The notes under the pieces were generated by a model that ran no database searches, was not told the origin of the DNA, and saw only the letters and a program-made list of their open reading frames with translations. Of a stretch of 64,000 bases of DNA, positions 42,379 to 63,804 are shown piece after piece. Position numbers and translations under genes: made by a program. Numbering within the stretch: the first letter of the stretch is position 1; each line of letters opens with the position of its first letter. The DNA comes from an uncultured Bradymonadales bacterium (GTDB taxonomy: Bacteria; Myxococcota_A; Bradymonadia; JAFGEP01). The stretch spans positions 678-64,677 of the forward strand of contig CAZDBH010000003.1 of the NCBI GenBank assembly GCA_964503485.1, given 5' to 3'.

Positions 42379-44667
42379 CTAGTCGTCGATAACTGGCCTC
42401 AGAATCGAGAGGCCCAGCACCCCCGAGAGCGCTTCTATCGAGCGATCGGGCGTGTAGGAATCGCCGATACCGAAGGTCTGAAACAGACTGGGAACGGCTG
42501 CCTCTTCAGGGCGCTGACGGATGATCCGGGCCGCGTAATTGAGTGGGTCGACCTGTTCGAAGTACATCTGGATCAGATTGAGAACAGGATGAAACTCGGA
42601 AGTGGACTCCTGCAGAACCAGACTGATACCGGAGGCGATATCGACCGGTTCGCTCTTTTCGAGCAGCGACAACAGAAGCCCCCCACCTGTTCCGCTGAGA
42701 ACGATAGCCGCGTAACTGTGGTCGGCTGCGGCCGCAATCGAACCGACGGTGCCTCCTTGCGAGTGACCAAAAAACACCAGGTTGGCTGGATTGAAGCGGA
42801 TAATGCCCGTGGTCGGTGAGTCGGCCCCAGCCACAGAAAAAGTCTCGGCAAATCGGCCATAGCTCAACACGTCGACTGCGCCTTGCAGCACGTTGCCGTG
42901 ACTGGCCCTGGGGTTGATGAAGTTGAAGAAGAGGCCGTCCGGTGGATCGGTCGAGTCGCCCCTGCGGTTGCCGTGCTGGACTCCGTCGTACCCGATCGTG
43001 GCGTATCCCATCTCGGACAACTCACTGCCAAGTTCGTCGACGTGGCCGCGGAAATTGCCCCCAGTCCCGTGGGCATAAACGACGACGGGCCAACCTTCAG
43101 CCGGCATGCTCGAGGTCTTCGGGACAGTGATCGTTGTACATACCGGCTCAGTGCGCTGCAGAATGGCGACTCCGCCGTCATCGAAGAGCAGTCCCCCGTC
43201 CTGTTCTAGATAGGGCGGTTCACCCACCTGAAAGACCGGAATCTCAACCGTGGTGTGAATCTCGAAGTGGTCTTCGCTTTCGGTGAAACAACCGCGGACA
43301 TGGTCTTCACCGTCCAATCCATCGTCGCATGGAGAAGTAGCGCCCTGACTGCAAAGCACGAGTTCGTCGTTCGTCGGCGGGTCCAACAGATCGAGTGCGG
43401 CCGAAATGCCATCGATCGGTTGGTCGGGATCGTCGATCGTGAAAACGGCCGCGGCCATGATGGTGCCTGAGGGTACGCCGACATCCAGGAGGTAAGTCCG
43501 CAGGGGGGCGTAGGCGTCCCATGCAGCGACCAGTTCTTGGTCCTCGGGCTCTCGCCCGTTCATCATGAGGGTAAAATCGTCTGACTGGACTGGCCGGTCG
43601 CCGTTTCGGCTGCGTATCCCATCAGTGATGATTGTGGCGTAAGTCGATCCGTGCTCGAAAGCCTGTGACCAAAGCGGTCGCACTGCTAGCCAGTTGTTGC
43701 AGATGAACGAACCGCGACCGTCGGTTGCCGACCAACTCAGCGATGTCCTGCGACCGTAGTTTCGGGATTCCGGAGTGATGTTGACCAGAGAGAGCACGGG
43801 GCTGTCGCCCGAGATGGTCACGCTGTCTGGATCGGGAAACTCATTGAAGCGAAAGAAGCCGGCTTGGTGGGTGCCAAACCCTGAGATATCGGCCTCGGCC
43901 TGCTCGATGAGTGTCTTGATGACATTGCCCACCACGTCGAGTTCTGGGCGTGGGTGCCCTGAAAGATCGACCCGACCGCCTGAGATGCGGATATCGTTTG
44001 GAAAGGGGAGTCGATAGAACTCCGTGACCTCTTCGTCCGAACGTGGAATTTCAAAAAACACTTGGAAATCACCGCCGTCTGGGATGCCTGGTGGCTCGCA
44101 CTCGATGGGTGTCACGAGCACCAACCCGCCGCCGGCTGCACCAGGTGTGCAGGCGGTTGCGTTCACCGTGGGATCGGGCTGAATGCATCCCAGGCCTGCT
44201 AGGCAATCAGCGGTCGATTCGCACTCGTCGCCCGAGTCGCCGATGCCAGGCTCTGCACAGACACCCACGAAGCCGCGCAGCTCACAGTAGAGTCCGGACA
44301 CACAATCACCGCTAGAATTGCAGGATTCGTCGATTTCGGATTCGCCCGCCTGAGCGCAGATACTGATCTCACTGCAGTACAGATCGTCTGCACACTCGCC
44401 ACTCAACGTGCAGCGACCGCCCTCGGGTTGGCTTCCCGTGGCAGTGCACAAGCCATCGTCGCAGCGGAGGCCGGTTCTGCAATCGCCGGCCACCGAACAG
44501 CTTTCGCCGACTCCTGCCCCTTCCGGCACTGCTGTAGGGGACTCTTCGCCTCCGAAAACAGCGTCGCAGCCGGCCATACAGAACAAGAAGGCACCGAGGC
44601 CGAAAAGCATCGCGGTGCGTTTTTTCCAGGCATGATGAGAACCGTTACTACGGTTTGATTGGTACAC
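42379..44667 (-). CDS. Secreted Cys-rich alpha/beta-hydrolase (lipase/esterase-like).
   Basis: Signal peptide, N-terminal CxxxxC-rich modules, then the nucleophile elbow FFGHSQGGTVGS and downstream Asp/His candidates. 762 aa. Confidence 0.6.
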   Translation of the reverse strand: MYQSNRSNGSHHAWKKRTAMLFGLGAFLFCMAGCDAVFGGEESPTAVPEGAGVGESCSVAGDCRTGLRCDDGLCTATGSQPEGGRCTLSGECADDLYCSEISICAQAGESEIDESCNSSGDCVSGLYCELRGFVGVCAEPGIGDSGDECESTADCLAGLGCIQPDPTVNATACTPGAAGGGLVLVTPIECEPPGIPDGGDFQVFFEIPRSDEEVTEFYRLPFPNDIRISGGRVDLSGHPRPELDVVGNVIKTLIEQAEADISGFGTHQAGFFRFNEFPDPDSVTISGDSPVLSLVNITPESRNYGRRTSLSWSATDGRGSFICNNWLAVRPLWSQAFEHGSTYATIITDGIRSRNGDRPVQSDDFTLMMNGREPEDQELVAAWDAYAPLRTYLLDVGVPSGTIMAAAVFTIDDPDQPIDGISAALDLLDPPTNDELVLCSQGATSPCDDGLDGEDHVRGCFTESEDHFEIHTTVEIPVFQVGEPPYLEQDGGLLFDDGGVAILQRTEPVCTTITVPKTSSMPAEGWPVVVYAHGTGGNFRGHVDELGSELSEMGYATIGYDGVQHGNRRGDSTDPPDGLFFNFINPRASHGNVLQGAVDVLSYGRFAETFSVAGADSPTTGIIRFNPANLVFFGHSQGGTVGSIAAAADHSYAAIVLSGTGGGLLLSLLEKSEPVDIASGISLVLQESTSEFHPVLNLIQMYFEQVDPLNYAARIIRQRPEEAAVPSLFQTFGIGDSYTPDRSIEALSGVLGLSILRPVIDD

Positions 44668-45366: not shown

Positions 45367-47358
45367 TCAATCGGAAATAGTCGGGATACCGTCGACTGCC
45401 GTACTCCAAAAGTTCACGGCGCGGAGGCGAGCCTCCTCGATATTATAGATCGTATAGTGCCCCTGTGAACCATCTAGAATCGTCGCGATTGTAAGAGACG
45501 ACCCGTCCACCGCACTCGTATTGCCTGACAGAGGCAAGCTCTGCGCCTCCATGTCCCACACGCCAAAGGGATCGACGTCCCAGCCAGCCGGGTCGATGGG
45601 CGTCACCGACCCCGCGATGGTGATCGCGTTCAATGACCGCGTGGGCGTGGTCACGTCGAGCATTCCGTTGATGAGCAGTAGATTCGAGCCCTCGGTATGC
45701 TCTTGCCATCCGCGCCATCTCGACGCGTAGCTGAGCGTATCGGACACCTCCCCTCCCATCTGTGCAAGCGCGACCAATGGATGAAACCGAGTCAGGGGGC
45801 GGCTGAGCCCCAATATGCCCTGAATCTGGGCATTGATGTCGATCGGGTCCTTTCGGTCAACGATCGTAATCGACAGATAACCACCAATCCCGTTTAGGGC
45901 GTAGGCGGCGATTTCGGTTTCAACACCAGCTGCGATCGCCCCGACCAACGCCCCCTGCGACTGGCCCCCGTAGATCAGCCGGTCAGTATTCAGCTCGGGT
46001 AGACCCTCTAGGCCGTCGAGCCCCTCCCTCAACAGCCTGACGAAGTACGCGGTATCGACGACCTGCTGCCTGAGGACGGTCCTTCCCGACTCGGGGTTCA
46101 GGTAATTGAAGGTGTGAGTGGTTGGGTCCGCACCTGTAGAGGCGCGTTGACCGTGGAACTGGGCCTCGAAACTGGCGATTGCAATGCCTTCGCGGAGTAG
46201 CAGCCGGGTGATCGGAGAGGTGACGAAGCTGTCGAGTGTCGCGCCAGTTCCGTCTTCCCAGATGAAGACCGGAAACGGTGGTTCACGATTTTCTGGAAAG
46301 GTAATGATGAAAGGCACCTCTTCGTAGCGTTGAATCCTCGGCAACCCGTCGCTGTCGTACTCGACACCTCCGCCCGAGTTATAAGGAGATTGACCTCGTT
46401 GAAAAATCGGCGACTCGAATGTTCCAGTGTAGGTCGCCGTCTGACCCGAGATCGACGCGTCATCATCTATCGCCCAGTTGCTTACAGTTGGGGCCTGAGT
46501 GGCGTCCGGATCGACCGCCACTGCTCGCATCGCAATGAGTTCTTCGGTCGGGTCTTGGGTGGTGAACACCGTCGCGACGGCGATCTCCTCGCTCGTCAAC
46601 CCCGCACCGTCCAGGCAGTCTCGCAGCGGGGCGAGGCTGTCGTTGAGAGCCTGATCCGATGAGCTGCCCGCGAGGGCCTCGGCGAAGAGCGAAGGCGTCG
46701 CAGTGACGTAGCCGGCCTCTGAACCAAAGGTTGTTGTAACGACGAGAGCATAACTGGTCACGGGCTCGAGAACGAAGCCTGGGACTGGTGCGATGGACAG
46801 CACACCCTCATCGACGAAGGCGTCCCCCTCTTCCTCGAAGACCGACTCCACCGGTATCCTCTGGTCGCAGCCCTCACTGAGGTTGATCAACTGGATCGAC
46901 GAGTCGGCCGCCAGGGTCTCGGACGGCTCGGGAATGGCCTCAGGGAGCGGGGTGTCGAATCGGACATAAATCACTGGAACGGTGGCAAAACCGTGCACGA
47001 ACTCGGTCAACACGCCCAGATACAGGTCGACGAATGGGTTGTTCGATTCCGGGAAATCGCCCAAGTCGAGGCTTCCGTCGTCCGTCACTCTGTGGTCCGA
47101 GGGCCACGGAAAGGCATAAAAACCGCTGTCGTCCGCTGCGTAGCTAGGCGTGAGCGTGCCGCTGTTTTGGGTCTCGTCTGGTGCGTCCGCGGTCGCGTCG
47201 ACCGTGTCGTCCGATGTGGCGTCATCGCCGCAAGACAGCTGAAACAGGACAGTCGCACACAATAATAGCCGGCCGAGTGGCCGTGTTCTACTCATCTTCG
47301 TTCGCTCCATACGCCAATGCGGCGCGGATTGTAGCAGAATCCGTGCAGAGGAAAACAA
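45367..47358 (-). CDS. Secreted alpha/beta-hydrolase, paralogue of 42379-44667.
   Basis: Signal peptide (LLLCATVLFQLSCG), a GxSxG elbow (YGGQSQGALVGA) and collinear similarity to the upstream hydrolase. 663 aa. Confidence 0.6.
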   Translation of the reverse strand: MFSSARILLQSAPHWRMERTKMSRTRPLGRLLLCATVLFQLSCGDDATSDDTVDATADAPDETQNSGTLTPSYAADDSGFYAFPWPSDHRVTDDGSLDLGDFPESNNPFVDLYLGVLTEFVHGFATVPVIYVRFDTPLPEAIPEPSETLAADSSIQLINLSEGCDQRIPVESVFEEEGDAFVDEGVLSIAPVPGFVLEPVTSYALVVTTTFGSEAGYVTATPSLFAEALAGSSSDQALNDSLAPLRDCLDGAGLTSEEIAVATVFTTQDPTEELIAMRAVAVDPDATQAPTVSNWAIDDDASISGQTATYTGTFESPIFQRGQSPYNSGGGVEYDSDGLPRIQRYEEVPFIITFPENREPPFPVFIWEDGTGATLDSFVTSPITRLLLREGIAIASFEAQFHGQRASTGADPTTHTFNYLNPESGRTVLRQQVVDTAYFVRLLREGLDGLEGLPELNTDRLIYGGQSQGALVGAIAAGVETEIAAYALNGIGGYLSITIVDRKDPIDINAQIQGILGLSRPLTRFHPLVALAQMGGEVSDTLSYASRWRGWQEHTEGSNLLLINGMLDVTTPTRSLNAITIAGSVTPIDPAGWDVDPFGVWDMEAQSLPLSGNTSAVDGSSLTIATILDGSQGHYTIYNIEEARLRAVNFWSTAVDGIPTISD

Positions 47359-47415: not shown

Positions 47416-48234
47416 CTATCCCACGATCATCCGTATGGACAAGCCGATTGCCGTGACCAGGAAGACCGCCCTGATCAGTTTGTCGCCCTGTCGAATGACC
47501 GCGATCGTACCCAAGAACCCACCCAGCCCCGTAGCGAGCGAGAGAACGATTCCGTGGCCCCACGCGATATCATCCGCCAGCGAGAAAATCACGATCGACA
47601 CCAGCGCAAATGCTGAGATAGTGAGGACCTTGACTGCGTTCGCCTGGATCAAGCCGAGGCCGCCGAACATGCTGAGAGCCGTCAAGGCCAGCATGCCAAC
47701 TCCGGCCTGGATGAAGCCGGCGTAGAGACCAACGAAGAAGTAGGCGATCATCAGTGATTTGTTCTTCGAACCATCAAGGTGAGCGTCGTCTGAAGGCTTC
47801 TTGCGCAGGAAAATCACTGCGGCGAGCGGAATCATGGCCAGTCCGAAAATTTGGCGGAACAAATCCGGGTCCGTAATCGTCGCCAGATAGGTGCCAAGCG
47901 CCGCTCCAATCAGGCCTGCAGGCAGGAGCTTGGCCCCGAGCGTCACCCCCGAGAGTCCCCGTTTGTGGAATGTTCGAGTCGCCACGACTGACTGGACGAA
48001 CACTGCCACTCGATTGGTTCCGTTCGCCACGTTCGGGGGCAAACCGACCAACACGAGCAGCGGGAAGGTCAGCAGCGTACCGCCTCCCGCCATTGTATTG
48101 ATTGCACCCGCCGCCACACCGCCTGCGAGTAACAGCGCCCAGCTCAGGATATCCATCGCCCCTCCGCTCGCGTGAGTAGGTCGCAGATCGAGGAAAGTTG
48201 CAAGCTGGTCAGCTGCCAATTCCCACAGAAACAA
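47416..48234 (-). CDS. TauE/SafE-family (sulfite exporter-like) membrane permease.
   Basis: Seven to eight TM helices with the characteristic repeated G-rich motifs (INTMAGGGTLLTFPLL, FVGLYAGFIQAGVGML). The start is possibly at 48156. Confidence 0.7.
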   Translation of the reverse strand: MFLWELAADQLATFLDLRPTHASGGAMDILSWALLLAGGVAAGAINTMAGGGTLLTFPLLVLVGLPPNVANGTNRVAVFVQSVVATRTFHKRGLSGVTLGAKLLPAGLIGAALGTYLATITDPDLFRQIFGLAMIPLAAVIFLRKKPSDDAHLDGSKNKSLMIAYFFVGLYAGFIQAGVGMLALTALSMFGGLGLIQANAVKVLTISAFALVSIVIFSLADDIAWGHGIVLSLATGLGGFLGTIAVIRQGDKLIRAVFLVTAIGLSIRMIVG

Positions 48235-48304
48235 GAATCATTGCGAATCCCGTGTTCGCGAATTATTGTGTGGCTGCAACGTGTCCTATTGGAGAGAGTT
48301 TTTC

Positions 48305-48631
48305 ATGAATACGAACCGTCTTGGCAATTTCCGCGCTGTCCTCGTTTTGACTGCGCTTGTTTTCATGCTCCTCGGAGCTGCTTGCAAGGGTAGCGGAACC
48401 TCGGATGGAAGCGGCGAAGGAACGGGCGACAATGCGCCTACAGTAGAGGAACCGACGTCGGCGCCGGCTGCTACGCCAACTCCAACACCGACATCTGCAC
48501 CGACGCCAACTCCGACTCCAACTCCGACACCAACACCGACGTCCGCACCCACTGGGTCGGCACCCGCACCAACTGGCGCTGCGACTGCTCCCGCGACTGG
48601 CCAACCGACCAGCGCCCCAAGCGGACACTAG
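48305..48631 (+). CDS. Small lipoprotein with a (Thr-Pro)n low-complexity tail.
   Basis: Lipobox LLGAAC. TPTPTPTSAPTPTPTPTPTPTPTS repeats. Confidence 0.5.
   Translation: MNTNRLGNFRAVLVLTALVFMLLGAACKGSGTSDGSGEGTGDNAPTVEEPTSAPAATPTPTPTSAPTPTPTPTPTPTPTSAPTGSAPAPTGAATAPATGQPTSAPSGH
48480..48560 (+). repeat. Hexanucleotide (ACNCCN)n microsatellite-like tract encoding the TP repeats.
   Basis: ccaactccaacaccgacatctgcaccgacgccaactccgactccaactccgacaccaacaccgacg. Confidence 0.6.
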
Positions 48632-48855
48632 CCGATCCCACACGTTCGGCTCACAACAAGACAGGAAACCGTCAGCATCGAGATCGTGTGATGTCTCGCT
48701 CGGACTGCGCGTAGCGCGCCTCGTGTCCGGGCGCCGGGGGACGGAAGCCGAGATTGACGGGCGATCCCGACTCCGCTAAACCAGTCGTTGTCTCTTAATG
48801 AGTGTGAACGTTTAACTCCAGCGAGTGCCCCATCTGGCAGACTCCAGAGGTAGCG

Positions 48856-50955
48856 ATGACCAAGCGCCCGATAGTCTCAATTTCTCTTGCTCTACTGCTC
48901 GTTTCGGCCTGTGGAGACGAAACAGTTCCCGTCGAAGAAGATACCCGTTGCTCGTCCAGCGAAACCTGCCCCGATGGGGAGGTCTGCCGGTCTGGCTTCT
49001 GCGCCGATGCGCCTGAATGCGATCTTCTGACCGACTGCGGCGAGGGCGAAAACTGTCTCGAAAGCGTGTGCGCATGGGATCCGGACGTCTGCTTGTCAGA
49101 CAACGACTGCGACGAGAACTTGATCTGTGATGTCGGTGAGTGCCGAGAAGGCTGTCGTAATGACAACCAATGCGGTGACACAGAACTGTGTACCAGCGAT
49201 TTGGTCTGCGAGCGGAAGCCATGCACAGAACTGGCTTGCGATGAGGGCTACGACTGCATTGAGGACACTGGGCTCTGTCAGCTCCGACCCTGTAACGGCG
49301 GATGTGATGAGCCCTTACAGTGCCGGGAGAGCGACGATCAGTGTGTCGAGTGTTTCGAAACCGACGAGTGTGGCACCTCGCAAACCTGTACAGAGGACGG
49401 TTTCTGTCTCGAGGACTCCTGTGAGGTCCACGAACAATGTGAAGAGGGCACCTTCTGCATCAACGAGTTCTGCGAAGCACCTCCCGAGTGCGAAGACGAC
49501 GAGTTTGAAGACAACGACGAATACGACGACGGTGGCCTACTCGCCGAAGGCGTGTACACCGACATCGTGTCGTGTCCTTATGACGAGGATTTCTTCAAGG
49601 TCGTGGCCGACGCCAACCACAGCCTGACGGTCACCGTCGACTTTTTGCACGAAGACGGCAACGTCGAGCTCGAAATCTTCAACACAGTCGGTGTGCTATT
49701 CGCCCGTCGCATCAGTAGTGATGACGACGAGTCGATTACCGTGAACATCGGAACAACCGGCGTCTACACGATCCGTATCTGGCAAGATGCTGGCACGCAG
49801 GGCGTCGACTACTCCTTGACGATGGAGACGGGTCAACCGGTGGAAGTCGCTGCTGACCTTTGCGTCCCCGACGCATTCGAACCCAACGAAGACGTCGAAT
49901 CAGCCACCGAGATTTTCTCAGGACGGTGGACGGGCATGTCGATCTGTGAGGACGACTCCGACTACTACGATATCCCGGCCCAACCCGGCGAGATTATCGA
50001 AGTTTGCGTCACCCCGTCCGAGCTCTACGACAAGACACTGGGTCTCGAGGTTCTGGCAGAAGGTGAAGGCGTCATCTTGACGGCCGCCGGGCGAACCGAA
50101 TTCTGCGTCGATGAAGACCTTTCACTCGGCACCGCCTTCTACGCACATGTCTTCTCAACGGCCGATGGTGACGAAACGCCATACCACGTAACCTTCGACG
50201 TCAGGCCAGGCTGTCGCATCTACGACGACGCCTACGACCAGGCCGGCACACACGATCGTATGCCGCGGGATGGTGAAGATCCGCTCGCCCCCCTCGAAGA
50301 GCTTCCGGCCGAGCTTCGAGTCTGCCCAAGTGACTCGGACTACTGGCCTGTCGATCTGCTCTGGCGCGATCAACTCTCGGCGAACATCACGTTCGTTCAC
50401 GATGATGGCGATTTGCAGCTGAAACTCCACCGGCCCAATGGCAGTGCGAGATTGGGCAGTTCCGGGAGGACGGACACCGAGGTTATTGAATACCAAGCCG
50501 AAGAGAGCGGTACCTACTTTCTGCGAGTCTACGGAGAGGCCGACGCCATGGGACCGTACACTATCGACTACTCGGTTACTGCCTACTGCGAAGAAGACGA
50601 GCATGAAGACAACGATGACAGCGACTCTGCTGCGGAACTTGCCATTGGCGACCACGTCGACCTTTGGCTGTGCAACGAAGACGATGACTTCTTCAAGTTC
50701 AGCGTTGCCGACGACGCGGAGGCCGAACTGACCGTGGCGCTCAGTTTTGAGGCCAGCCAGGGCATCTTGTCTTTGTCAGTCGCACCGCCCGGCGGCGACT
50801 TCGTCGAAGCCGAGGGTTCGGGTGGCGAGTGGGCGGTCGTGGTTTGGCCCGCCCCCCGGTTCAAGGGGGGCACGCAAATTTTAACAATCAAGGTTGACGG
50901 GGCCGACGGAACAGAGAACACCTACGACCTGAGTATCGCGTTAGGCGGAGAGTAA
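48856..50955 (+). CDS. Lipoprotein with an N-terminal Cys-rich (CxxGxC) repeat region followed by four PPC (bacterial pre-peptidase C-terminal) domains.
   Basis: Lipobox LLLVSAC. About 200 aa contain more than 30 Cys in CxDGxC / CxxxxC spacing. Four modules each carry E[DP]N[DE]....A and a downstream D.D[YF][YFW] motif (DEDFFKV, DSDYYDI, DSDYWPV, DDDFFKF). Confidence 0.7.
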   Translation: MTKRPIVSISLALLLVSACGDETVPVEEDTRCSSSETCPDGEVCRSGFCADAPECDLLTDCGEGENCLESVCAWDPDVCLSDNDCDENLICDVGECREGCRNDNQCGDTELCTSDLVCERKPCTELACDEGYDCIEDTGLCQLRPCNGGCDEPLQCRESDDQCVECFETDECGTSQTCTEDGFCLEDSCEVHEQCEEGTFCINEFCEAPPECEDDEFEDNDEYDDGGLLAEGVYTDIVSCPYDEDFFKVVADANHSLTVTVDFLHEDGNVELEIFNTVGVLFARRISSDDDESITVNIGTTGVYTIRIWQDAGTQGVDYSLTMETGQPVEVAADLCVPDAFEPNEDVESATEIFSGRWTGMSICEDDSDYYDIPAQPGEIIEVCVTPSELYDKTLGLEVLAEGEGVILTAAGRTEFCVDEDLSLGTAFYAHVFSTADGDETPYHVTFDVRPGCRIYDDAYDQAGTHDRMPRDGEDPLAPLEELPAELRVCPSDSDYWPVDLLWRDQLSANITFVHDDGDLQLKLHRPNGSARLGSSGRTDTEVIEYQAEESGTYFLRVYGEADAMGPYTIDYSVTAYCEEDEHEDNDDSDSAAELAIGDHVDLWLCNEDDDFFKFSVADDAEAELTVALSFEASQGILSLSVAPPGGDFVEAEGSGGEWAVVVWPAPRFKGGTQILTIKVDGADGTENTYDLSIALGGE

Positions 50956-50959
50956 ACAG

Positions 50960-52936
50960 GTGCGACAGTCTCGTTTGGTTCTCGCTTGCAGTATCGCTGT
51001 TACCACTGCCTGCTCCGGCACCAACGTGGTCGTTTCGGACGGCTCCCTTCAAAGTCTAGAATCGTGCCAACAACTCATACAGCCCTATGATCTGTGGGGT
51101 GCCACTGAAGACGGCCTCGAGTGCCTCGGAGATTGGCTGGAAGAGGCTGAATACCCCTACTCGGTCGCCGGAAAAGAGGTGCGGAGCAATGCCCTCTTGG
51201 ATCTATGGGTGTTTTCCCAGCTGACGACCGATGACCAAGGCCGGCAACGCGCAATCGAACTAGTCGATGGGACGGTCGCTGCCTCGGGAGCGGAGAGTTT
51301 TGATGAATTGATTCGGTCCGATTTGGCCGAGGCCGAGGTCGAACGGGACGAACTCGCCACCGCCCTTGAACTACTCGAATTCGACATTCAAGCCGCCAGT
51401 GCGGCGTGGGACTTCGGACAGTGGAACGGCGCCACCCATTCTGGGCCCCGTTTGCGCCTCATTCTGGCGAGTTTGCTGGCCCGCCACGCCCCCGAATGGC
51501 TGGTGCCCGGTGTGCAAGCCAACCCAGCCTCCCTCGATCGCTTCGGTTGGCTGTGTGGCGCCGAACGAGGTGTCCCGCTGGCGCATATTGCTGGCCGGTG
51601 CGGCTATTGGTGCGATTCGGTTTCAGAGGCGGAGCCCACAGCCCCCCCGATCGAACGGGAAGCCCATGAGCTGGTGGAAGATGATACACCCGTCGAGGTT
51701 GACCTCGAACCGGACCCAAGCGACCCGGCTCCGGTGGTTGAAGACGATGACCGTGAGAGTGCCTGGCGACCCACGATCGGCGATGTGGGTTACGAACTGG
51801 TGAGCATGTGTGGCAGCGACTACTTCAGGCTTCCGAGTACAGGTGACTTGGTTCTGCTCAACGAGGCCAATTTTGTCCGGCTGGTCTACCTCGACTTCGT
51901 GGGCCAACTGCTGTCCGACATCGAAGGCGACCTGATTATGGGCGAGCCACTCACTGTCCTATCGTCCGACTTGCTGGCGGACTATTCGGTGACCTTCCTC
52001 GATGGTGCGGCGGCACAGGAGCTAACCCCTGCCGCCCTTGTGTTCGATGTCCGCCTCGAGCTTCCCCGGCTACTTGGAGCCCTCGCCGAGCGACGCTTGG
52101 ATCTCAGGGGGCCTGAGCTGCGAATCGTCTCGGTGCTGAGCTCCGGCGTTCATGTCGGTGTCCGCCCACACCTCCAATTGGCTCGCTCGGAGGCGGGTGG
52201 CTACGAATTAGACTACCCCGAGGGGAGATTCGGCCTGCATTACCCAGGTGAAGAGGTCGTCCCGTTTCCTCGACTCAACCGACTAGATGAAGGCGTGATC
52301 GAAGACGGCCGCCTTCCGGCCCTCGAGACCCGACTCAGCGAGCTCGAAGATCACCTGGGCGCGCTCGGATGGGCAACAGGCCGCGACACAGGCGCATGTC
52401 GAGTTGAACCGGGTACGACAGTCTCGGTTTTGGTAGATGGCTCCACCCCATTCGGCATCGTCAAGGCCGTGCTGGCGTCGCTACTACACTGCGGCTACGA
52501 ACCGACCCTTCACGGGCTCACGGATGAGCAGATTTTGACCGACGTACCGGGCTCGCTAGCCCAGGAGTCGATCTCGGAGCCCCACCACACCCTCACATTG
52601 CGCAGCCGAAACTACTCACTCGAACAATCGGGAGCGGCTGAAGACGAAGACCCCTTCTTGCTGCCCCGCTCCGAGTATGCGCCTATCTCCCGAATCGCTT
52701 CCCGTCTGTCGGAGTGGGTTGCCTCGGACTCGACCGCACCCCTCGTGGTCGTGGTTGAGGACTCTACCGACTTCGGAACAGTCGCCAACGTCCTCCAAGG
52801 ACTCGGCTTCCGCCGGATCGCTGTTGACGAAGTCGAGCGCGACGCGGACTTCCTTCGCCTCGATCTCGAATACGACGGCACGGGCTCACCGAGACCGCTG
52901 GTTCCTGCCGGTGTTGTGATTCGTCTCGCTCAGTAG
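50960..52936 (+). CDS. Lipoprotein of unknown function (GTG start).
   Basis: LVLACSIAVTTACSG lipobox. 658 aa with genome-typical codon bias. 4 nt after the upstream stop. Confidence 0.5.
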   Translation: MRQSRLVLACSIAVTTACSGTNVVVSDGSLQSLESCQQLIQPYDLWGATEDGLECLGDWLEEAEYPYSVAGKEVRSNALLDLWVFSQLTTDDQGRQRAIELVDGTVAASGAESFDELIRSDLAEAEVERDELATALELLEFDIQAASAAWDFGQWNGATHSGPRLRLILASLLARHAPEWLVPGVQANPASLDRFGWLCGAERGVPLAHIAGRCGYWCDSVSEAEPTAPPIEREAHELVEDDTPVEVDLEPDPSDPAPVVEDDDRESAWRPTIGDVGYELVSMCGSDYFRLPSTGDLVLLNEANFVRLVYLDFVGQLLSDIEGDLIMGEPLTVLSSDLLADYSVTFLDGAAAQELTPAALVFDVRLELPRLLGALAERRLDLRGPELRIVSVLSSGVHVGVRPHLQLARSEAGGYELDYPEGRFGLHYPGEEVVPFPRLNRLDEGVIEDGRLPALETRLSELEDHLGALGWATGRDTGACRVEPGTTVSVLVDGSTPFGIVKAVLASLLHCGYEPTLHGLTDEQILTDVPGSLAQESISEPHHTLTLRSRNYSLEQSGAAEDEDPFLLPRSEYAPISRIASRLSEWVASDSTAPLVVVVEDSTDFGTVANVLQGLGFRRIAVDEVERDADFLRLDLEYDGTGSPRPLVPAGVVIRLAQ

Positions 52937-53070
52937 CGCCGAGCGTTCATGGCCGGTAGGCGACCCACCCGTGCCGGCAAAACACCCCTTTACTTTCGAT
53001 TCGATCTGGATACACTGACCGGCCAGTCACACCTACTTGAGCTTGGGCGGCTTAGGGTAGTGCTACATCG

Positions 53071-54351
53071 ATGGATGGTGATACGCCGATGCGAACCGCT
53101 CTATCTTTTTCTCTGATGGGAAGTCTTGTCGTTTGTTGTTTTGCAACTGCCGTCAGCGGCTGTGCGGAGGACAAGATCGACCGGAACGCGTTTTCTGCGG
53201 CAGATAACTCGCAGAACGACGACACAGACCGAACTCGTCCCACCGACGACGACAACGATGATACGACCGATCCTCAGGTCGGTACTACCGACAACCCCGA
53301 TCCGAATCTTGCGGAGTTGGTTTACGAGGTGGACGAACCAATTGATCAGCCACTAGACGACGAAGAGCCAGACGATCCAATCGACCCGCCTCTCGACGAA
53401 CTAGAAGGTTTCATTGGTTCGCCCTGCGAAACGGCTAGCGACTGCGAGTTCGACAACCCGATGTGTCTGACCGACGAAGAGGGTTATCCAAACGGCATGT
53501 GCGCCGAGGCGTGCGATCGGCTGTGCCCAGACAGAGAGGGTTTTCCAACGACATTCTGCGTAGACAGCGAGGCGTCGGTTAGCGGCGCTTGCCACTCGCG
53601 ATGCGACTACCTCGCTTATCCCGGTATCGGATGCCGAGCTGGCTACAGTTGCCAAGTCACCGGCCGATACAACGAGTCCAGTACACAATATGGAACCTGC
53701 CTGCCGGGCGAAGGGCCGATCCAAGCCGAGTCCGAGTGTTTGCAATGGTTGATCGATCAGGGCGTGCCATTCGAGCCAACGACGTATACACCGCGCCATC
53801 CCAGCGGCGACACGAGCTTGACCTGCACCGTCGAGGACCCAGTCAGGCTGCATTCGCCCGTACATGGCGTCAACTTCCGCTACTACAGTGACAGCCCCGG
53901 CGAGTTCCGATCCATGCTCATGTCATGCGAACTGGCGCGGTCGCTCACCGAGATGTCGGACATCTTGTCCGAGGAATTCAACATCAACGAGACGCTGCAC
54001 ATCGGCACCACGGTCTGTCGCAAGATATCGGGCACGAGTCGGTTGAGCGAGCATGGCCGCGGCACGGCGATTGACCTGTATGGGTTCTTCGATGACGACG
54101 CCAACTGGTACGGTCTAGAAGACCATTGGGAACACGACACCACCAGCCCCACCACGGCTGAGGGACAAATGCTATACGAGTTCTCCGAGCGGCTGTACGA
54201 AGAGTGGGTCTTCAATGTCATCTTGACCCCGAACTACAACGCGGGGCACGACAACCACTTCCACGTAGACTTAACCGTAGGCTCCCATTTCATCGGGGTC
54301 CACGACGAGTACTGGGGTCCCTTTCTCGGGCCCAACACTCATGGCGATTGA
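53071..54351 (+). CDS. Lipoprotein with an acidic Asp/Pro-rich linker, a Cys-rich module and a C-terminal LAS/peptidase-M15-like (VanY/extensin-like) zinc hydrolase domain.
   Basis: Lipobox TAVSGC. SEHGRGTAIDL matches the SxHxxGxAxD zinc-ligand motif of D-Ala-D-Ala carboxypeptidase-like folds. A downstream GHDNHFHVDL matches the second His ligand region. Confidence 0.5.
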   Translation: MDGDTPMRTALSFSLMGSLVVCCFATAVSGCAEDKIDRNAFSAADNSQNDDTDRTRPTDDDNDDTTDPQVGTTDNPDPNLAELVYEVDEPIDQPLDDEEPDDPIDPPLDELEGFIGSPCETASDCEFDNPMCLTDEEGYPNGMCAEACDRLCPDREGFPTTFCVDSEASVSGACHSRCDYLAYPGIGCRAGYSCQVTGRYNESSTQYGTCLPGEGPIQAESECLQWLIDQGVPFEPTTYTPRHPSGDTSLTCTVEDPVRLHSPVHGVNFRYYSDSPGEFRSMLMSCELARSLTEMSDILSEEFNINETLHIGTTVCRKISGTSRLSEHGRGTAIDLYGFFDDDANWYGLEDHWEHDTTSPTTAEGQMLYEFSERLYEEWVFNVILTPNYNAGHDNHFHVDLTVGSHFIGVHDEYWGPFLGPNTHGD

Positions 54352-54382: not shown

Positions 54383-56107
54383 ATGAACGCAATCGAATAC
54401 TCCGTTAGCTTTCCTAATCCACACACTCACCGAATCGCTGTGACGCTGCGCTTTTGTGCGGCCAGCGACCGGCCTGAGGTCGCCATGCCCGCCTGGACTC
54501 CCGGCTCTTACCTACTTCGGGAGTTTGGGCGCCATATCGAGCACCTGTCTGCTCAAACAGGCGGGAAAGAGACCACGACCCACAAGATCGGGAAGGCAAC
54601 TTGGCGAATTGATGCCGTGGCAGGAGATGAGGTTGTCGTCGAGTATGGCATCTACGCCCATGAGTTGACTGTCCGAACCAGCCATGTCGACGGAACCCAC
54701 GCCTTTCTTTCTGGCACTTCGACCTTCCTCTTCGTCAAAGGACAGAAGGACCTGCCCGCCACCGTCCGGATTGCGACTCCTGATGGATGGCAGACCTTCA
54801 CAACCCTGCCGGAGGCCGGGCAGGATACCTTCAGCGCAAGCGACTACGATCATCTCGTGGACTGTCCGATCGAGATCGGACCCGACCACCACCACTTCGC
54901 ATTCAACGCACTCGGCGTCGAGCACCAGGTCGTGTTTTGGGGCCCGACCAATGCGGATTACGAAGAGCTCGCTGAAGACATGGCGGAGATTGTAAGGGCA
55001 AACGCAGCTCTCTTCGGTGGTCTGCCCTACGAGCGTTATCTGTTCATCGTTCACACCTCGAGCAAGGGTCAGGGTGGACTCGAACACCGCGACAGTTGTG
55101 CCCTGCAGTGGCAACGACACCGCTTCGAGGGTTCCGATTATGATGAGTTTCTGCGCCTCGTCTCGCACGAGCACTTCCACGTCTGGAATGTGAAACGCAT
55201 TCGTCCCGACAACCTGGGACCATTTGACTACCTCGCGGAGAGTCCAACGACCGTACTTTGGGCGATGGAGGGCGTAACCAGCTATTACGACAAGCGCCAG
55301 GTTCTTCGCTCGGGCCTGGTGGACGGCGAGCGGTACCTCGATTGGGTGGCAGAATCCATCAACAAGTTGAACCTCATCCCCGGCCGCAAGCTGACCTCAC
55401 TCGAAGAATCGAGCTTTGACGCCTGGATCAAGCTCTACCGACCGACTGAAAACTCGGCCAATGCCACGGTCAGCTACTACCTCTTGGGCAGCTTGGTCAC
55501 CATGGCGCTCGACCTCGAGATCCGGCGCACCACCAATGGGAATTCGAGCTACGACGACGTGATGGCAACCCTGTGGCAACGCTATCAGGACACCCGTTCC
55601 GGTCTAGACGAACTCGAGTTCAAACAGATCATCAAGGACATCGGCGGCGAACACCTCGATTCTTGGGTTCACGAATTGATCGAGACTCCCGCCGATCCGG
55701 ACTGGGATCATCACCTCAGCGTTGTGGGAATGAAACTCGAGGCCGAGAAGAACGGCAAACAACCCTACTTTGGTCTCGTCTTCTCGCGAGGAGCGAGGAT
55801 GCGGGTTACCACGGTGCTGACCGATGGACCGAACGCCGAGTCAGACATTTACCCGGGCGACGAAGTGATCGCGCTAAACGGCTTTGAAGTCGACCCAGGC
55901 AAATGGAAACGAGTTCTGTCGATGCTACCCAACGACGAGACAGTCGAGGCGACGCTCTTTCGGAAGGGGTTGCTTCACACCAGTACCATTCAATGCGGGC
56001 CACCCCGAGTGAAATTCAAGGTTGTGCCGGTCAGCGATCCGAGTCCGGAACAGTTAGAACACCGTGCCAGCTGGCTGTTTCAGACCGACTTGCCAGAGTC
56101 GGAGTAA
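54383..56107 (+). CDS. Peptidase M61 (glycyl aminopeptidase family) with a C-terminal PDZ domain.
   Basis: HEHFHVWNVKRIRP contains the HExxH zinc motif in the M61 context. The C-terminal PDZ-like segment is GDEVIALNGFEV. Confidence 0.75.
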   Translation: MNAIEYSVSFPNPHTHRIAVTLRFCAASDRPEVAMPAWTPGSYLLREFGRHIEHLSAQTGGKETTTHKIGKATWRIDAVAGDEVVVEYGIYAHELTVRTSHVDGTHAFLSGTSTFLFVKGQKDLPATVRIATPDGWQTFTTLPEAGQDTFSASDYDHLVDCPIEIGPDHHHFAFNALGVEHQVVFWGPTNADYEELAEDMAEIVRANAALFGGLPYERYLFIVHTSSKGQGGLEHRDSCALQWQRHRFEGSDYDEFLRLVSHEHFHVWNVKRIRPDNLGPFDYLAESPTTVLWAMEGVTSYYDKRQVLRSGLVDGERYLDWVAESINKLNLIPGRKLTSLEESSFDAWIKLYRPTENSANATVSYYLLGSLVTMALDLEIRRTTNGNSSYDDVMATLWQRYQDTRSGLDELEFKQIIKDIGGEHLDSWVHELIETPADPDWDHHLSVVGMKLEAEKNGKQPYFGLVFSRGARMRVTTVLTDGPNAESDIYPGDEVIALNGFEVDPGKWKRVLSMLPNDETVEATLFRKGLLHTSTIQCGPPRVKFKVVPVSDPSPEQLEHRASWLFQTDLPESE

Positions 56108-59192: not shown

Positions 59193-59411
59193 AGCCGATG
59201 GCTCTCTCCTAAAACGCAGACGGCCTCCGACTTTCTTGCGACAGCCTCGTTGTGGGTGAGTGTAAGTTTTTGGCTTGATTCTTCCGCGTCAATTCGGTAA
59301 ATACGGTGTGTCTGGTCATGGTCCGTGGCGGCCCTTTGCGTCCCCTGGCCGGGCATTGTCGCAATCCACGGAATCCCATGTGTCCTTAACCGGCGCACTT
59401 TGGAGGCCAGG

Positions 59412-60707
59412 ATGCGATTCAACTCCCTATTCATTTGTAACATCACCCTAATCACTGCCCTGTTTTCGATTGGATGCGTCGAAGAACCGGTCGGCGATCT
59501 CGACGAGACCGGCGATTTGGCCACATCGACCCATGCCGTGCTCGAGGGAACGCCGCAGGCCATCGGCCTTCTGGCGTTGCTCAACGATCCGGCGCCCACT
59601 CTCGACATTCTGGATCATGACGTTCGGCTCGACAGTCGTGCCGCAAAGAACCTGATTCACCGCCGCGATGGTTACGACCAGACTCCCGGCACATCCGACG
59701 ACAACTTGTTCGAGAGTGTTGCCGAGGTAGATCGCGTTCGTTGGGTAGGCAACTCGGCGATCGGCCGCTTGCTTCACGCCGCGGAGAACTGGGGCTGGGT
59801 CCCGGAAGGCGACGAGCGTTTGGGACGCTGGGACCGCGTGGCCTTCACCGTCACCGAGGCCGCACTCACACTCGAGTTCGTCAATCAGGCCTCTCATGAC
59901 CTGCTTGATCACGATCTAGGTCTGGATCGGCGCGCCGCCGACTCGATTGTAGCTGCACAGCCCATCACGTCAGTCGCGACGCTGGCTGGCCTCTACTACG
60001 TAGGTCACAGCGCCTTGGACACGCTCAAGGAAGTGGCGAACCACGTGCCAGTGGTCGACTCCGTCCAATTCTCAGACCAGTTCAATCACGACGAAGCGGA
60101 CGAGATTCCCGATGGCGACAACTATGGCCTCACGACTCGAGTGCATGTGGCCAGCGTGCCGGATGTACGAGTCGGCGTTGTCATGGTCGTCGATTTTCTT
60201 CACGATGCTCAAGACGAGCTCCACCTGGAACTTACCAGCCCGACTGGCGACTCGTGGGAGTTCGTGGCCAACGACAAAGGGACCTATCCGATCGGCGCTC
60301 TGTTGAACCCGAACGGTTACTGGAGACTGACGGTTTCGGACCGAACAGACGGCAATGTGGGTGAACTCTACGGGTGGGCCCTGGAAGTCAGCACAGACAC
60401 GACTGAGTCCGTCATGCAGGACCGATTCAAACTCGACCTCGCCTGGTGGCTCGGTCACTGGTATCGCTCCTACGGCGCCGATGCCGTCCAAGCGGGAGGC
60501 CACTCCCTCGAGGAAGCAAGAGAGGCCATCGATGCCGGTACGGTCACAGAATTGGCGGACTACCAGGACGACCCCGAAGGCAACGATCCAGCCACAACGC
60601 TGGTCTTGACTCACAGTGACGTCGTATTCCCGGGTGGCGATACCGTGTGGTTCGTGTCCTACGACCGCGAGACCGGTACGATCGTCGACGTCTACGACTT
60701 CCAGTAG
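59412..60707 (+). CDS. Lipoprotein with two helix-hairpin-helix (ComEA-like) motifs and a C-terminal proprotein-convertase P-domain-like beta-sandwich.
   Basis: GGAGG RBS and lipobox LFSIGC. Two HhH-like motifs: LDHDVRLDSRAAKNLI and LDHDLGLDRRAADSIV...LAGLYYVGHSALDTL. The tail VVMVVDFLHDAQDELHLELTSPTGDSWEF...YWRLTVSDRTDGNVGELYGWALEV resembles P_proprotein. Confidence 0.55.
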   Translation: MRFNSLFICNITLITALFSIGCVEEPVGDLDETGDLATSTHAVLEGTPQAIGLLALLNDPAPTLDILDHDVRLDSRAAKNLIHRRDGYDQTPGTSDDNLFESVAEVDRVRWVGNSAIGRLLHAAENWGWVPEGDERLGRWDRVAFTVTEAALTLEFVNQASHDLLDHDLGLDRRAADSIVAAQPITSVATLAGLYYVGHSALDTLKEVANHVPVVDSVQFSDQFNHDEADEIPDGDNYGLTTRVHVASVPDVRVGVVMVVDFLHDAQDELHLELTSPTGDSWEFVANDKGTYPIGALLNPNGYWRLTVSDRTDGNVGELYGWALEVSTDTTESVMQDRFKLDLAWWLGHWYRSYGADAVQAGGHSLEEAREAIDAGTVTELADYQDDPEGNDPATTLVLTHSDVVFPGGDTVWFVSYDRETGTIVDVYDFQ

Positions 60708-62940: not shown

Positions 62941-63804
62941 GTGTATTCTGGAAAAACTATGACGACCAACTGGAAACCTGACATATTCAGTTATCTCGAC
63001 TACCGGAAGTACCTCGCGGACTACTACGATGCTGCGAAGGTGCACAACCGTGCCTTCTCTTATCGCTATTTCTCGCGAAAGGCGGGCTACAGCTCGCCCA
63101 ACTTCCTCAAGCTGGTCATTCTGGGTCAGCGAAACATCAGCTCAGATAGCATCGAGCGATTTGCCTCAGCCCTCAAACTGACGGTGACCGAATCCCGCTT
63201 CTTTGGGAATCTGGTGGCCTTCAATCAGGCGAGCAACGAGGAAGAAAAGAACGAGGCCTTCGAGCGGGTGGCGGCTAGTCGGCGTTTCAGGCAGGCCAGA
63301 AAGCTCGATCGAGACTTCTACACCTACCTTTCTCGTTGGTATTATCCCGCGATACGCGAAATGGTAGCGCGGGCCGACTTCGTTGAAGACCCCGAGTGGA
63401 TCGCGAGTCAACTTCTCCCTACAATCCAGCCGGCGCGTGCCAAAGCCTGTTTGGAGCTACTTTTGGATCTGGGACTAGTCGAACGAGACGAAACTGGACG
63501 TCTGACTCGGGGGGAATCCAGTATCACCACTGGGCACGAAGTGCGCTCACTGGCGGTCGGCAACTACCACCGGCAGATGCTCAAACGTGCCGCCGAGTCG
63601 ATTGAGTTGGTTCGGAGTGAGAGTCGGGACATCAGCGCCCTGACGGTCTCTATATCTGCCGACACGGTGCCCGAACTCAAAGAGAGAATACACAACTTCC
63701 GGGAGGTCCTGATCGACCTGTGCGATCGGGACGAGGCGCCCAATTCGGTGTACCAAATCAATATCCAGCTGTTCCCGCTGACCCAAACAGAGAGAGAGTC
63801 GTAA
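62941..63804 (+). CDS. TIGR02147/DUF4423-like helix-turn-helix family protein (hypothetical).
   Basis: YLDYRKYLADYYDAAKVHNRAFSYRYFSRKAGYSSPNFLKLVILGQRNIS matches the N-terminal region conserved in that family. 287 aa. Confidence 0.5.
   Translation: MYSGKTMTTNWKPDIFSYLDYRKYLADYYDAAKVHNRAFSYRYFSRKAGYSSPNFLKLVILGQRNISSDSIERFASALKLTVTESRFFGNLVAFNQASNEEEKNEAFERVAASRRFRQARKLDRDFYTYLSRWYYPAIREMVARADFVEDPEWIASQLLPTIQPARAKACLELLLDLGLVERDETGRLTRGESSITTGHEVRSLAVGNYHRQMLKRAAESIELVRSESRDISALTVSISADTVPELKERIHNFREVLIDLCDRDEAPNSVYQINIQLFPLTQTERES

Follow-up and report, generated by a model that had tools for sequence, protein, structure and literature searches.

A run of four consecutive lipoprotein genes in the window, the 64,000-nucleotide stretch of DNA analyzed here, is tentatively best explained, with somewhat less than even confidence, as a mosaic of three envelope units and not as one cassette: a P2–P3 pair, P4, and P1. 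In this model, P2 and P3 would form a coupled lipoprotein pair restricted to one small, uncultured, Myxococcota-like clade. P2 would extend from an N-terminal lipid anchor through a disulfide-rich stalk to four PPC modules that are probably ligand-binding and calcium-stabilized, the distal module being the most variable. P3 would be lipid-anchored, without the transmembrane helix that makes motor stators of TolR and ExbD, and may position or hold P2 in the envelope by binding to the wall or to a partner in the periplasm. P4, an independently regulated putative peptidoglycan peptidase, belongs to the 'extensin family' that occurs across Myxococcota; preceded by a conserved stretch of its own, it would have been recruited beside P2–P3 only in this clade, and it most likely cleaves peptidoglycan peptide stems or cross-links. 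P1, a small low-complexity lipoprotein, would be a separate unit.

Organization of the gene run

All four open reading frames lie on the plus strand: P1 (48,305–48,631, 108 aa), P2 (48,856–50,955, 699 aa), P3 (50,960–52,936, 658 aa), and P4 (53,071–54,351, 426 aa), separated by gaps of 224, 4 and 134 nt. This bears out the initial annotation, which had placed four closely spaced, same-strand genes at 48,305–54,351 and had called every product a lipoprotein. Each N-terminus indeed comprises a signal peptide and a lipobox, as judged by a regular expression plus inspection by eye. A crude regular expression flagged 8 of the 49 open reading frames in the window while P1 and P3 escaped it, implying a background rate of lipoprotein genes of ~10–15%. 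Four such genes in a row are unlikely to occur by chance; clustering of lipoprotein genes is common.

Family searches matched none of the four to a well-characterized housekeeping family, in keeping with their earlier description as envelope proteins without a characterized function: they are extracytoplasmic, lipid-anchored and disulfide-rich. The indicators are a very acidic composition, the lipoboxes, and 33 patterned cysteines, and the sequences support placing the products in an extracytoplasmic, oxidizing compartment. Predation, cell-wall editing and adhesion, the functions first suggested, would be hypothetical roles for them. Family profile searches detected no secretion-system, toxin or sorting-tag family in the run, and no published experiments on the P1–P4 proteins were found in the searchable literature.

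P2–P3 is the constant core of the locus

A single four-gene cassette, as first proposed, is not supported by the relatives, in which only P2–P3 is constant and coupled and both P4 and P1 vary. The core conserved in six P2-bearing lineages is a TauE/SafE-family gene next to P2–P3 (L001, L003, L006, L089, L090 and L091), and the P2–P3 order is constant in all six, down to 31–42% identity. P3 starts with GTG 4 nt past the P2 stop, with GGAG within the 3' end of P2; elsewhere the two genes overlap or are 0–2 nt apart (L003, L090, L089) or lie 63 nt apart (L091). P2 and P3 are thus predicted to be translationally coupled.

P4 behaves differently. It adjoins P3, in either orientation, in the window, L001, L003, L005, L006 and L091; it is inverted beside P3 in L006, L091 and L005, and absent from that position in L089 and L090. 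Through these rearrangements, 5 of 7 lineages keep P4 adjacent to P3, and so lasting an adjacency could reflect a functional tie closer than that of a recruited neighbor. Among 80 loci examined, none had P2 or P3 within 9 kb of a P4-family gene.

P1, P2 and P4 are each preceded by a distinct, highly conserved stretch, and the P2–P3 junction has none; conservation here was measured against one close relative, L001. The stretch before P2 (48,728–48,855, plus strand) is 81–97% identical to L001 per 32-nt segment, compared with 31–59% for the distal intergenic part and 73–78% for flanking coding DNA, making it a candidate promoter or leader of P2–P3. The stretch before P4 (52,976–53,070, plus strand) is 95.8% identical over 95 nt, compared with 73% for P3 coding sequence and 81% for P4 coding sequence, and is a candidate promoter or operator of P4's own; the distal 39 nt reach 31%. 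Neither stretch has an unusual RNA fold (z = +1.05 and z = +0.43, respectively) or an Rfam match, and a consensus sigma-70 scan of the P4 stretch scored at chance level.

P2 combines a cysteine-repeat stalk with four PPC modules

P2 is an acidic lipoprotein whose lipobox (LVSAC/G, Cys19) keeps its cysteine in at least 90% of the family alignment. Eight 4-Cys repeats follow (aa 30–212; 48,943–49,491, plus strand, delimited by Cys spacing): residues 32–212 hold 33 cysteines in 8 repeats of ~23 aa with the spacing C-x5-C-x5-C-x4-C. A Cys-repeat region had been noted earlier and is present, but its proposed unit, a literal CxDGxC, is not the one that repeats. Searched alone, the Cys-rich region matches DUF7107 at 1.2e-6.

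The remainder of P2 is made of four PPC-type beta-sandwich modules of ~120 aa each (aa 212–335, 336–452, 453–577 and 578–699, assigned by Pfam and HHalign). P2 passes the Pfam PPC model (PF04151) at 40 bits against a gathering cut-off of 25.9, and only modules 1 and 3 match it individually (1.8e-4 and 2.4e-6). The earlier count of four PPC-type modules is nonetheless correct, because module-versus-module HHalign gave 95–99% probability in 6 of 6 pairs. Module 4 is the most variable, at 37% identity versus 50–55%. A P2 relative with 44% identity is named 'PPC domain-containing protein' by NCBI. Unlike PPC (pre-peptidase C-terminal) proteins, P2 has no attached protease domain and carries its four PPC copies atop a lipid-anchored Cys-repeat stalk, an architecture seen in 16 relatives only. 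With those 16 relatives in 5.8 billion clusters, the P2 family is very rare.

P3 carries two modules read as TolR/ExbD-like

P3 had been described as a lipoprotein of unassigned function, and no Pfam or NCBIfam family reached its cut-off against it. It is acidic, with a lipobox (VTTAC/S, Cys18) whose cysteine is retained in 30 of 30 family sequences covering that position. The AlphaFold2 model, built from 35 sequences (pLDDT 88.3, pTM 0.84), divides the protein into a helical N-domain (aa 27–215), a disordered acidic linker (aa ~220–270), a helical mid-region (aa 271–385), and two C-terminal modules (aa ~386–525; 52,115–52,534 and aa ~540–658; 52,577–52,933, plus strand). The order beta-beta-beta-alpha-beta-alpha-beta occurs twice in the model, and we take it to resemble the TolR periplasmic domain. 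Foldseek returned local matches to TolR (5by4, probability 0.95, TM 0.52 on target) and ExbD (8pek, probability 0.77), but nothing matched the whole protein at E<1e-3. By sequence, P3 scores 13.8 bits against Pfam ExbD (PF02472), under the 25.4 cut-off, and HHalign against a single TolR sequence was not significant; in the family member P0128, two stretches pass the ExbD gathering score (26.3 bits). On the predicted structure, we read the C-terminal modules as TolR/ExbD-like.

P3 differs from TolR and ExbD in several respects. The N-terminal transmembrane helix, which in stators pairs with TolQ/ExbB, is absent from P3 and its relatives, which have only a lipoprotein signal peptide; P3 therefore presumably also lacks the conserved membrane Asp of the TolR/ExbD stators. 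The module that we read as TolR/ExbD-like occurs twice, joined to ~380 aa of helical sequence unrelated to it, and the scanned P3 neighbors include no TolQ/ExbB gene. D493, D604, G606, R619 and D628 are near-invariant in the family, and conservation is lowest in the helical N-domain (21% identity). The family is very rare: a word search found 4 relatives, and 39 representatives turned up in a set of 1.84 billion. We infer that P3 would contact P2 and bind the wall.

P4 is an Extensin-like_C lipoprotein with LAS motifs

P4 has a lipobox (AVSGC/A, Cys31) whose cysteine is kept in at least 90% of the family alignment. The D/P-rich acidic linker reported previously spans aa 32–112 and is the least conserved part of P4 (18% identity). 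It leads into a domain of 10 invariant cysteines (aa 113–215; 53,407–53,715, plus strand), which has no Pfam counterpart, and then an Extensin-like_C/LAS zinc-peptidase-type domain (aa 220–410; 53,728–54,300, plus strand). The latter matches PF06904 at 9.4e-17 (62.2 bits, cut-off 25.4), as do 25 of 25 relatives. The predicted LAS motifs SxHxxGxAxD (54,046–54,075, plus strand) and HxH (54,256–54,264, plus strand) are present, and across 25 sequences S326, H328, A333, D335, H396 and H398 are invariant together with the 10 cysteines.

P4 scores weakly against Peptidase_M15_4 (15.1 bits, cut-off 25), and 18 of 25 relatives match that family weakly, at best 5.8e-5. Its motifs align locally with the corresponding segments, which include zinc-binding residues, of E. 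coli MepK (KSYHTKGQAMDF) and MepA (HRAHMHV), LAS-type zinc peptidases of M15/M74 type; HHalign against single MepK and MepA sequences gave no significant whole-domain match, and no solved structure related to P4 was detectable by sequence. The motifs support an LAS/M15-like assignment; the peptidoglycan substrate proposed above is a prediction.

The P4 family extends to 201 species genomes, with names including Myxococcota, Bradymonadia, Polyangia, Nannocystaceae and Enhygromyxa. Proteins of Azospirillum, Rhizobium and Klebsiella that are annotated as 'extensin family' share 25–29% identity with P4; the Myxococcota form adds the lipid anchor, the acidic linker and the conserved 10-Cys domain. 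No activity test of any PF06904 member was found in the searchable literature.

P1 is a small Thr/Pro-rich lipoprotein

P1 has its lipobox cysteine at Cys27, Lys at +2, and a low-complexity Thr/Pro-rich tail; the TP tract, as annotated before, derives from an imperfect 6-nt repeat (48,476–48,549). The -3 position of the lipobox (LLGAAC/K) is non-canonical, yet it is kept in L001 and L006. Both loci encode P1 orthologues (78% identity in L001) that share the signal, the lipobox and the +2 Lys. P1 is absent from L003, no conserved equivalent was seen in L090 or L091, and a 206-aa lipoprotein occupies its position in L089. A family search with P1 returned only low-complexity matches, far under cut-off.

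Architectural analogy to TraA–TraB

The P2–P3 pair recalls TraA–TraB, the outer-membrane exchange receptor and partner of Myxococcus xanthus (PMC3325183). TraA is a membrane-anchored surface protein with an anchor-proximal, Cys-rich tandem-repeat 'rigid stalk' and a distal beta-sandwich head; traA lies just upstream of and overlaps traB, whose product has a wall-binding domain at its C-terminus and a large N-region without assignment (PMC3325183). The likeness, in coupled genes and an anchor-stalk-head layout, is one of architecture only, and no sequence relationship between P2/P3 and TraA–TraB was found. At E<=0.1, P2 lacks the PA14 domain, TIGR04201 repeat and MYXO-CTERM tag of TraA; its anchor is an N-terminal lipid, not a C-terminal tag, and its heads are PPC modules. 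P3 likewise has no OmpA domain (E<=0.1), unlike TraB, and only TolR/ExbD-like modules.

By this analogy, P2–P3 would be an undescribed TraA–TraB-like two-lipoprotein surface apparatus of uncultured Myxococcota in which P3 ties P2 to the wall and P4 opens the wall, an idea we regard as improbable. Were it true, variable PPC heads borne on a rigid disulfide stalk would serve in recognizing other cells or prey, P3 would have put tandem periplasmic domains of TolR/ExbD type to a motor-free use, and the LAS lipoprotein P4 would open the wall locally for assembly or action of the apparatus.

Alternative explanations

The genes may have no functional link at all, being unrelated envelope lipoprotein genes whose products work singly and whose adjacency was simply inherited within one small clade. 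The P2-bearing loci all come from fairly close relatives (P2 identity 42–85%) in which other flanks, namely TauE, U663, U222, U762 and a patatin, are syntenic too; P4 is usually found without P2 or P3, and neither P2 nor P4 accompanies the distant P3 relatives. Against this, the few-base P2–P3 gap or overlap persists while everything downstream of P3 rearranges, which is typical of co-translated partners, and the P4 adjacency survives two kinds of inversion. We consider the absence of any link unlikely, though a serious contender. A single co-regulated, secreted four-gene cassette that serves to lyse prey or to adhere, P4 being the lytic enzyme and P2/P3 the targeting parts, would suit the shared strand, the tight spacing, the putative secreted hydrolases nearby, and a host lineage akin to the predatory Bradymonadia and Myxococcota. 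It appears quite improbable given that P4 varies in orientation and is missing from L089 and L090, that P1 is missing from L003 and has no conserved equivalent in L090 and L091, that the conserved upstream regions are separate, and that secretion-system, toxin and sorting-tag families were not detected. Within the mosaic of three units that we favor, any joint role of the units would likewise be putative.

Two further readings concern P3. It might act on the P4 hydrolase as an adaptor or inhibitor, in a controlling or protective role as in NlpI/MepS or Bd3460/Bd3459, with P2 incidental; P3–P4 adjacency in the six loci listed above, in either orientation, would fit, and helical-repeat domains like that at the P3 N-terminus are of a kind used in protein binding. 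We find this very doubtful, because at least 80 genomes have P4 relatives with no P3 nearby, separate contigs of genome 7_bin.36 carry L009, a relative of P4, and L095, a relative of P3, and the helical N-domain is the part of P3 that is least conserved. Finally, P3 might serve in the periplasm as a sensor or protease of the TPR-CHAT (caspase-like) type, kin of Csx29 and of the periplasmic domain of DdvA, a periplasmic TPR-CHAT protein of Myxococcus (PMC11506125). DdvA (8rw5) and Csx29 (8eex, 8eey, 7y9x chain B) do rank among the top Foldseek matches, over ~700 columns, but with TM 0.10–0.14, rmsd ~25 Å and probabilities of 0.07–0.21. The P3 family has no conserved His-Cys pair (best His columns 23–24 of 35) and, by a conserved-column check, no Cys in its C-terminal half, and P3 has no CHAT or TPR Pfam match, leaving this kinship barely credible.

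Flanking genes

The TauE/SafE-family membrane protein (47,416–48,234, minus strand; PF01925, 3.6e-39) is divergent from P1, and the 70 nt between the two genes match L001 at 88.6% identity. On the other side, 31 nt downstream of P4, begins P5, an M61 peptidase (54,383–56,107, plus strand; Peptidase_M61_N 3.1e-51 from residue 5, Peptidase_M61 9.4e-42) with a weak PDZ_2 match (15.8 bits, cut-off 27). P5 has no signal peptide and is probably a neighbor outside the envelope set. An M61 peptidase, paired with a patatin, also adjoins the distant P3 relatives, in convergent orientation. The wider neighborhood of the run encodes many putative secreted hydrolases, among them two GxSxG-motif lipoproteins and one patatin.

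A lipoprotein gene run with three putative transcription units

The initial annotation described four consecutive lipoprotein genes on one strand, and on inspection the open reading frames are real, each encoding a leader and a lipobox. On the + strand, P1, a small Thr/Pro-rich lipoprotein (window 48305–48631; 108 aa, lipobox LLGAAC/K), is followed by the Cys-rich P2 (48856–50955; 699 aa, LVSAC/G), P3 (50960–52936; 658 aa, GTG start, VTTAC/S) and P4 (53071–54351; 426 aa, AVSGC/A), with intergenic gaps of 224, 4 and 134 nt. A gene for a TauE/SafE-family membrane protein (TauE; 47416–48234, − strand) lies divergently upstream of P1, and an M61 peptidase gene (54383–56107), whose product lacks a signal peptide and has a weak sub-threshold PDZ_2 match, starts 31 nt downstream of P4. 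Read from the translations, all four N-termini consist of a basic and hydrophobic leader closing in the lipobox. The lipid-acceptor Cys is kept in 30/30 P3-family sequences covering that position and in at least 90% of each of the P2 and P4 family alignments, while P1 orthologues at two related loci, L001 and L006, share its signal, lipobox and +2 Lys. Because of their cysteine pattern and lipid anchors, we place P1–P4 outside the cytoplasm as predicted extracytoplasmic proteins. The locus encodes hypothetical, lineage-restricted envelope proteins of an uncultured organism, and nothing in it is at odds with what the envelope of Myxococcota-like bacteria would be expected to contain.

Conservation upstream of the genes was assessed against one close relative, L001, on which all of the following figures rest. 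Identity between window and L001 is 95.8% over the 95 nt preceding P4, against 73–81% in flanking coding DNA; it is 81–97% over the ~130 nt preceding P2, 88.6% in the 70-nt divergent region between TauE and P1, and 31–59% in distal intergenic parts. These conserved stretches gave no Rfam match and no unusual RNA fold, and are more likely to be promoter or operator DNA. A scan for promoter and terminator consensus sequences returned counts at chance level. Overall, the layout points to three putative transcription units, namely P1, P2–P3, and P4, perhaps with M61. The TauE/P1 intergenic region also contains an inverted repeat, GCGAA-N-TTCGC (48241–48261), partly conserved in L001.

P2–P3 is the constant pair

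We next compared gene order across loci holding P2 and P3 relatives. The window and L001 share TauE (−), then P1, P2, P3, P4 and M61 (+), then a patatin gene (−), and L003 keeps this order with P1 missing. In L006, TauE, a P1-like gene, P2 and P3 lie on one strand with P4 convergent and unrelated genes beyond; L091 has TauE, P2 and P3, then a convergent P4. In L005, P3 and an oppositely oriented P4 in two ORFs flank a single unrelated gene, and M61 follows P4. L089 and L090 carry TauE, P2 and P3, then unrelated genes, and lack P4. The unvarying unit is TauE with P2–P3. The P2–P3 junction spans 4 nt in the window, 0 nt in L003, 2 nt in L090 and 63 nt in L091, and is an overlap in L089. The proposed four-gene cassette therefore stands in part: the genes share a strand and P2–P3 is a constant pair, but P1 is missing in L003, P4 is inverted or absent at several loci, and tblastn found P2 or P3 relatives within 9 kb of P4-family genes at 0/80 genome loci. 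As a pair, P2 and P3 combine known parts in a new way.

Distant P3 relatives (26–27% identity) at L093 and L095/L096 occur without P2 and P4, with P3 convergent with an overlapping M61–patatin pair. The oldest linkage appears to be that of P3, M61 and patatin. These distant relatives (L093 7371–12705, L095 8001–13025, and L096) are also lipoproteins, and the M61–patatin overlap is ~10 nt. A small two-helix membrane protein precedes the P3 relative in L093 and L094, and overlaps P3 in L093. In genome 7_bin.36, the P4 relative and the P3 relative are on separate contigs. Across 80 loci of the wider P4 family, any given neighbour recurred at most 8 times. The one exception, a cluster of 20 loci, is probably an ORF-calling artefact on the antisense strand; the count used a naive ORF caller, poor in GC-rich DNA. 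The P4 orthologue in L005 (2828–4113, − strand) is broken into 275-aa and 142-aa ORFs, either an assembly frameshift or a pseudogene.

P2 combines a Cys-repeat region with four PPC-type modules

P2 is strongly acidic (D+E 166 versus K+R 32). Residues 32–212 contain 33 Cys with a spacing of 6-6-5-6, giving eight ~23-aa repeats of four Cys each. The ~200 aa of Cys repeats in the initial annotation are present, but with a repeat unit other than the literal CxDGxC. Searched alone, this region matched DUF7107 (1.2e-6). The remainder of P2 consists of four ~120-aa modules, each opening with C-x-(D/E)-D-x-x-E-x-N-D. Whole P2 passes the Pfam PPC cut-off (40 bits versus 25.9), and modules searched singly matched PPC for modules 1 and 3 only. 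The four PPC-type modules are nonetheless confirmed, because profile–profile comparison across 13 family members gave 95–99% probability in all six module pairs. Module 4, the distal one, is the most variable, with a mean pairwise identity of 37% versus 50–55% in modules 1–3.

This architecture is rare: 5.8 billion clusters yielded 16 relatives, of which only one carries a name, a 44% identical 'PPC domain-containing protein [Myxococcales bacterium]'. The single NCBIfam match, Por_Secre_tail, falls within PPC module 1 and, at 21 bits under a 23-bit cut-off, was rejected as beta-sandwich cross-talk. No meaningful match came from sequence and profile searches of the PDB; the top entry, TTHA1528 (E=0.004), was judged noise. 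P2 is a new member of a known but functionally blank domain family.

P3 founds a rare family with putative TolR/ExbD-like modules

P3 reached no Pfam or NCBIfam family at cut-off, with no NCBIfam match at all, and a PDB sequence search gave no match. A word-indexed search returned 4 matches and an exhaustive profile search 39 representatives among 1.84 billion; scanning GTDB species genomes with two patterns from the P3 alignment found no relative. P3 is the founder of an unnamed, very rare family. AlphaFold2 reached pLDDT 50 from four sequences, and pLDDT 88.3 and pTM 0.84 from a 35-sequence alignment. The model comprises a helical N-domain (~27–215), a disordered acidic linker (~220–270), a helical mid-region, and two C-terminal beta-beta-beta-alpha-beta-alpha-beta modules (~386–525 and 540–658), with boundaries read from the model's secondary structure. 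The near-invariant family residues D493, D604, G606, R619 and D628 all fall in these two modules.

Foldseek matched no PDB entry over the whole of P3 at E<1e-3 and returned nothing from the viral BFVD. Locally, it matched the periplasmic domain of E. coli TolR (5by4; 88 columns, prob 0.95, target TM 0.52) and, with prob 0.77, ExbD (8pek). The L006 orthologue, P0128, clears the gathering threshold of Pfam ExbD with 26.3 bits in two stretches, whereas P3 itself scores only 13.8 bits; HHalign against a single E. coli TolR sequence gave a short, motif-level alignment that was not significant. P3 is not a TolR/ExbD stator, because it lacks a transmembrane helix. A TPR-CHAT identity (DdvA, Csx29) was also considered and rejected, with a Foldseek TM of 0.10–0.14, an rmsd of ~25 Å and no conserved His-Cys pair.

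P4 is a putative LAS-type member of the extensin-like family

The M15/LAS-like assignment of P4 holds at the motif and family level. P4 scores 62 bits on Pfam Extensin-like_C (cut-off 25.4). Across 25 aligned relatives, S326-x-H328-x-x-G-x-A333-x-D335 and H396-x-H398 do not vary, and neither do R317, N390, H393 and D400. Peptidase_M15_4 was matched by 18 of these 25 (best 5.8e-5). In short local alignments, both motifs coincide with matching segments of MepK and MepA, characterised E. coli endopeptidases in which those segments carry the zinc ligands; HHalign against the single MepK and MepA sequences gave no significant whole-domain match. Sequence and profile searches of the PDB found no solved relative, and NCBIfam gave no match. 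Across the same alignment the design is constant, running from the lipobox through a variable low-complexity linker (18% identity) and a 10-Cys domain to the catalytic-type domain. The 10-Cys domain (aa 113–215, ~100 aa; window 53407–53715) has ten invariant Cys in the pattern WIGxPC...CDRxCPD...TFC...RCD...GCRxGYxC and lies outside Pfam coverage. It is doubled in two P4 relatives, P0101 and P0105.

The family is present in 201 GTDB species genomes, the named ones being Myxococcota, Bradymonadia, Polyangia, Nannocystaceae and Enhygromyxa salina, with distant matches (25–29% identity) to 'extensin family proteins' of Proteobacteria. We found no study testing any member of PF06904 or a bacterial 'extensin family protein'. 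P4 is a new member of this known, large but functionally blank domain family and, if read correctly, provides a testable prediction for it: the family would consist of zinc-dependent peptidases of peptidoglycan, with H328, D335 and H398 invariant.

Several further loci were observed. In Klebsiella pneumoniae (CP125156.1, 1020770–1021453), the gene of an 'extensin family protein' with 28% identity to the catalytic domain of P4 is divergent from ddlA, the D-Ala-D-Ala ligase gene, a single hint at D-Ala-containing wall peptides. An unannotated relative of the catalytic domain (28% identity, E = 4e-7) in Pseudomonas phage Y1 (OQ572403.1, 48700–49131) is the only phage match among 50,697 records. 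In E. coli K-12 (2444751–2446384), the LAS-type endopeptidase gene mepA directly adjoins the TauE-family yfcA, 27% identical to the window TauE (E = 8e-17). The window likewise has a TauE-family gene beside that of a putative wall peptidase; the parallel may be coincidence.

A model for P2–P3 and its analogy to TraA–TraB

Periplasmic domains of TolR and ExbD bind peptidoglycan or periplasmic proteins. The tandem TolR/ExbD-type modules of P3 could do the same, with P3 acting as a lipid-anchored partner of P2, which would extend from its lipid anchor through a rigid disulfide stalk to four beta-sandwich heads. The simplest reading of P4 would be a zinc peptidase that targets the peptides of peptidoglycan, in the producer's own wall or in that of prey. 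We infer the P2–P3 contact, the wall binding and the P4 substrate from these features.

The putative layout resembles a described myxobacterial system. TraA of Myxococcus xanthus bears a membrane tag, a 'rigid stalk' of Cys repeats and, as its head, a beta-sandwich PA14 domain, and its gene overlaps that of its partner TraB, which carries an OmpA wall-binding domain (PMC3325183). P2–P3 would parallel this anchor/stalk/head protein and coupled partner, but because every TraAB-defining family is absent, the relation is one of analogy, not membership. If this is correct, P2–P3 would share with TraAB the design of a stalked head and a partner tethered to the wall, reached a second time from unrelated proteins. 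P3 would then be a case in which TolR/ExbD-type periplasmic domains, duplicated and lipid-anchored, stand alone rather than form part of a proton-motive motor.

Other genes in the window

Two paralogous lipoproteins of 762 and 663 aa (42379–44667 and 45367–47358, both − strand) have no Pfam match; their GxSxG motifs (GHSQGG, GGQSQGA) suggest alpha/beta-hydrolase esterases. The 762-aa protein also has an N-terminal Cys-rich repeat region. Both genes, a 222-aa gene and TauE are syntenic with P2–P3 in L001, L006 and L091. Further envelope-related or poorly known proteins are a SpoIID and CarboxypepD_reg protein (30919–32589, −), a protein with a proprotein-convertase P-domain (59325–60707, +) and a DUF4423 protein (62941–63804, +).
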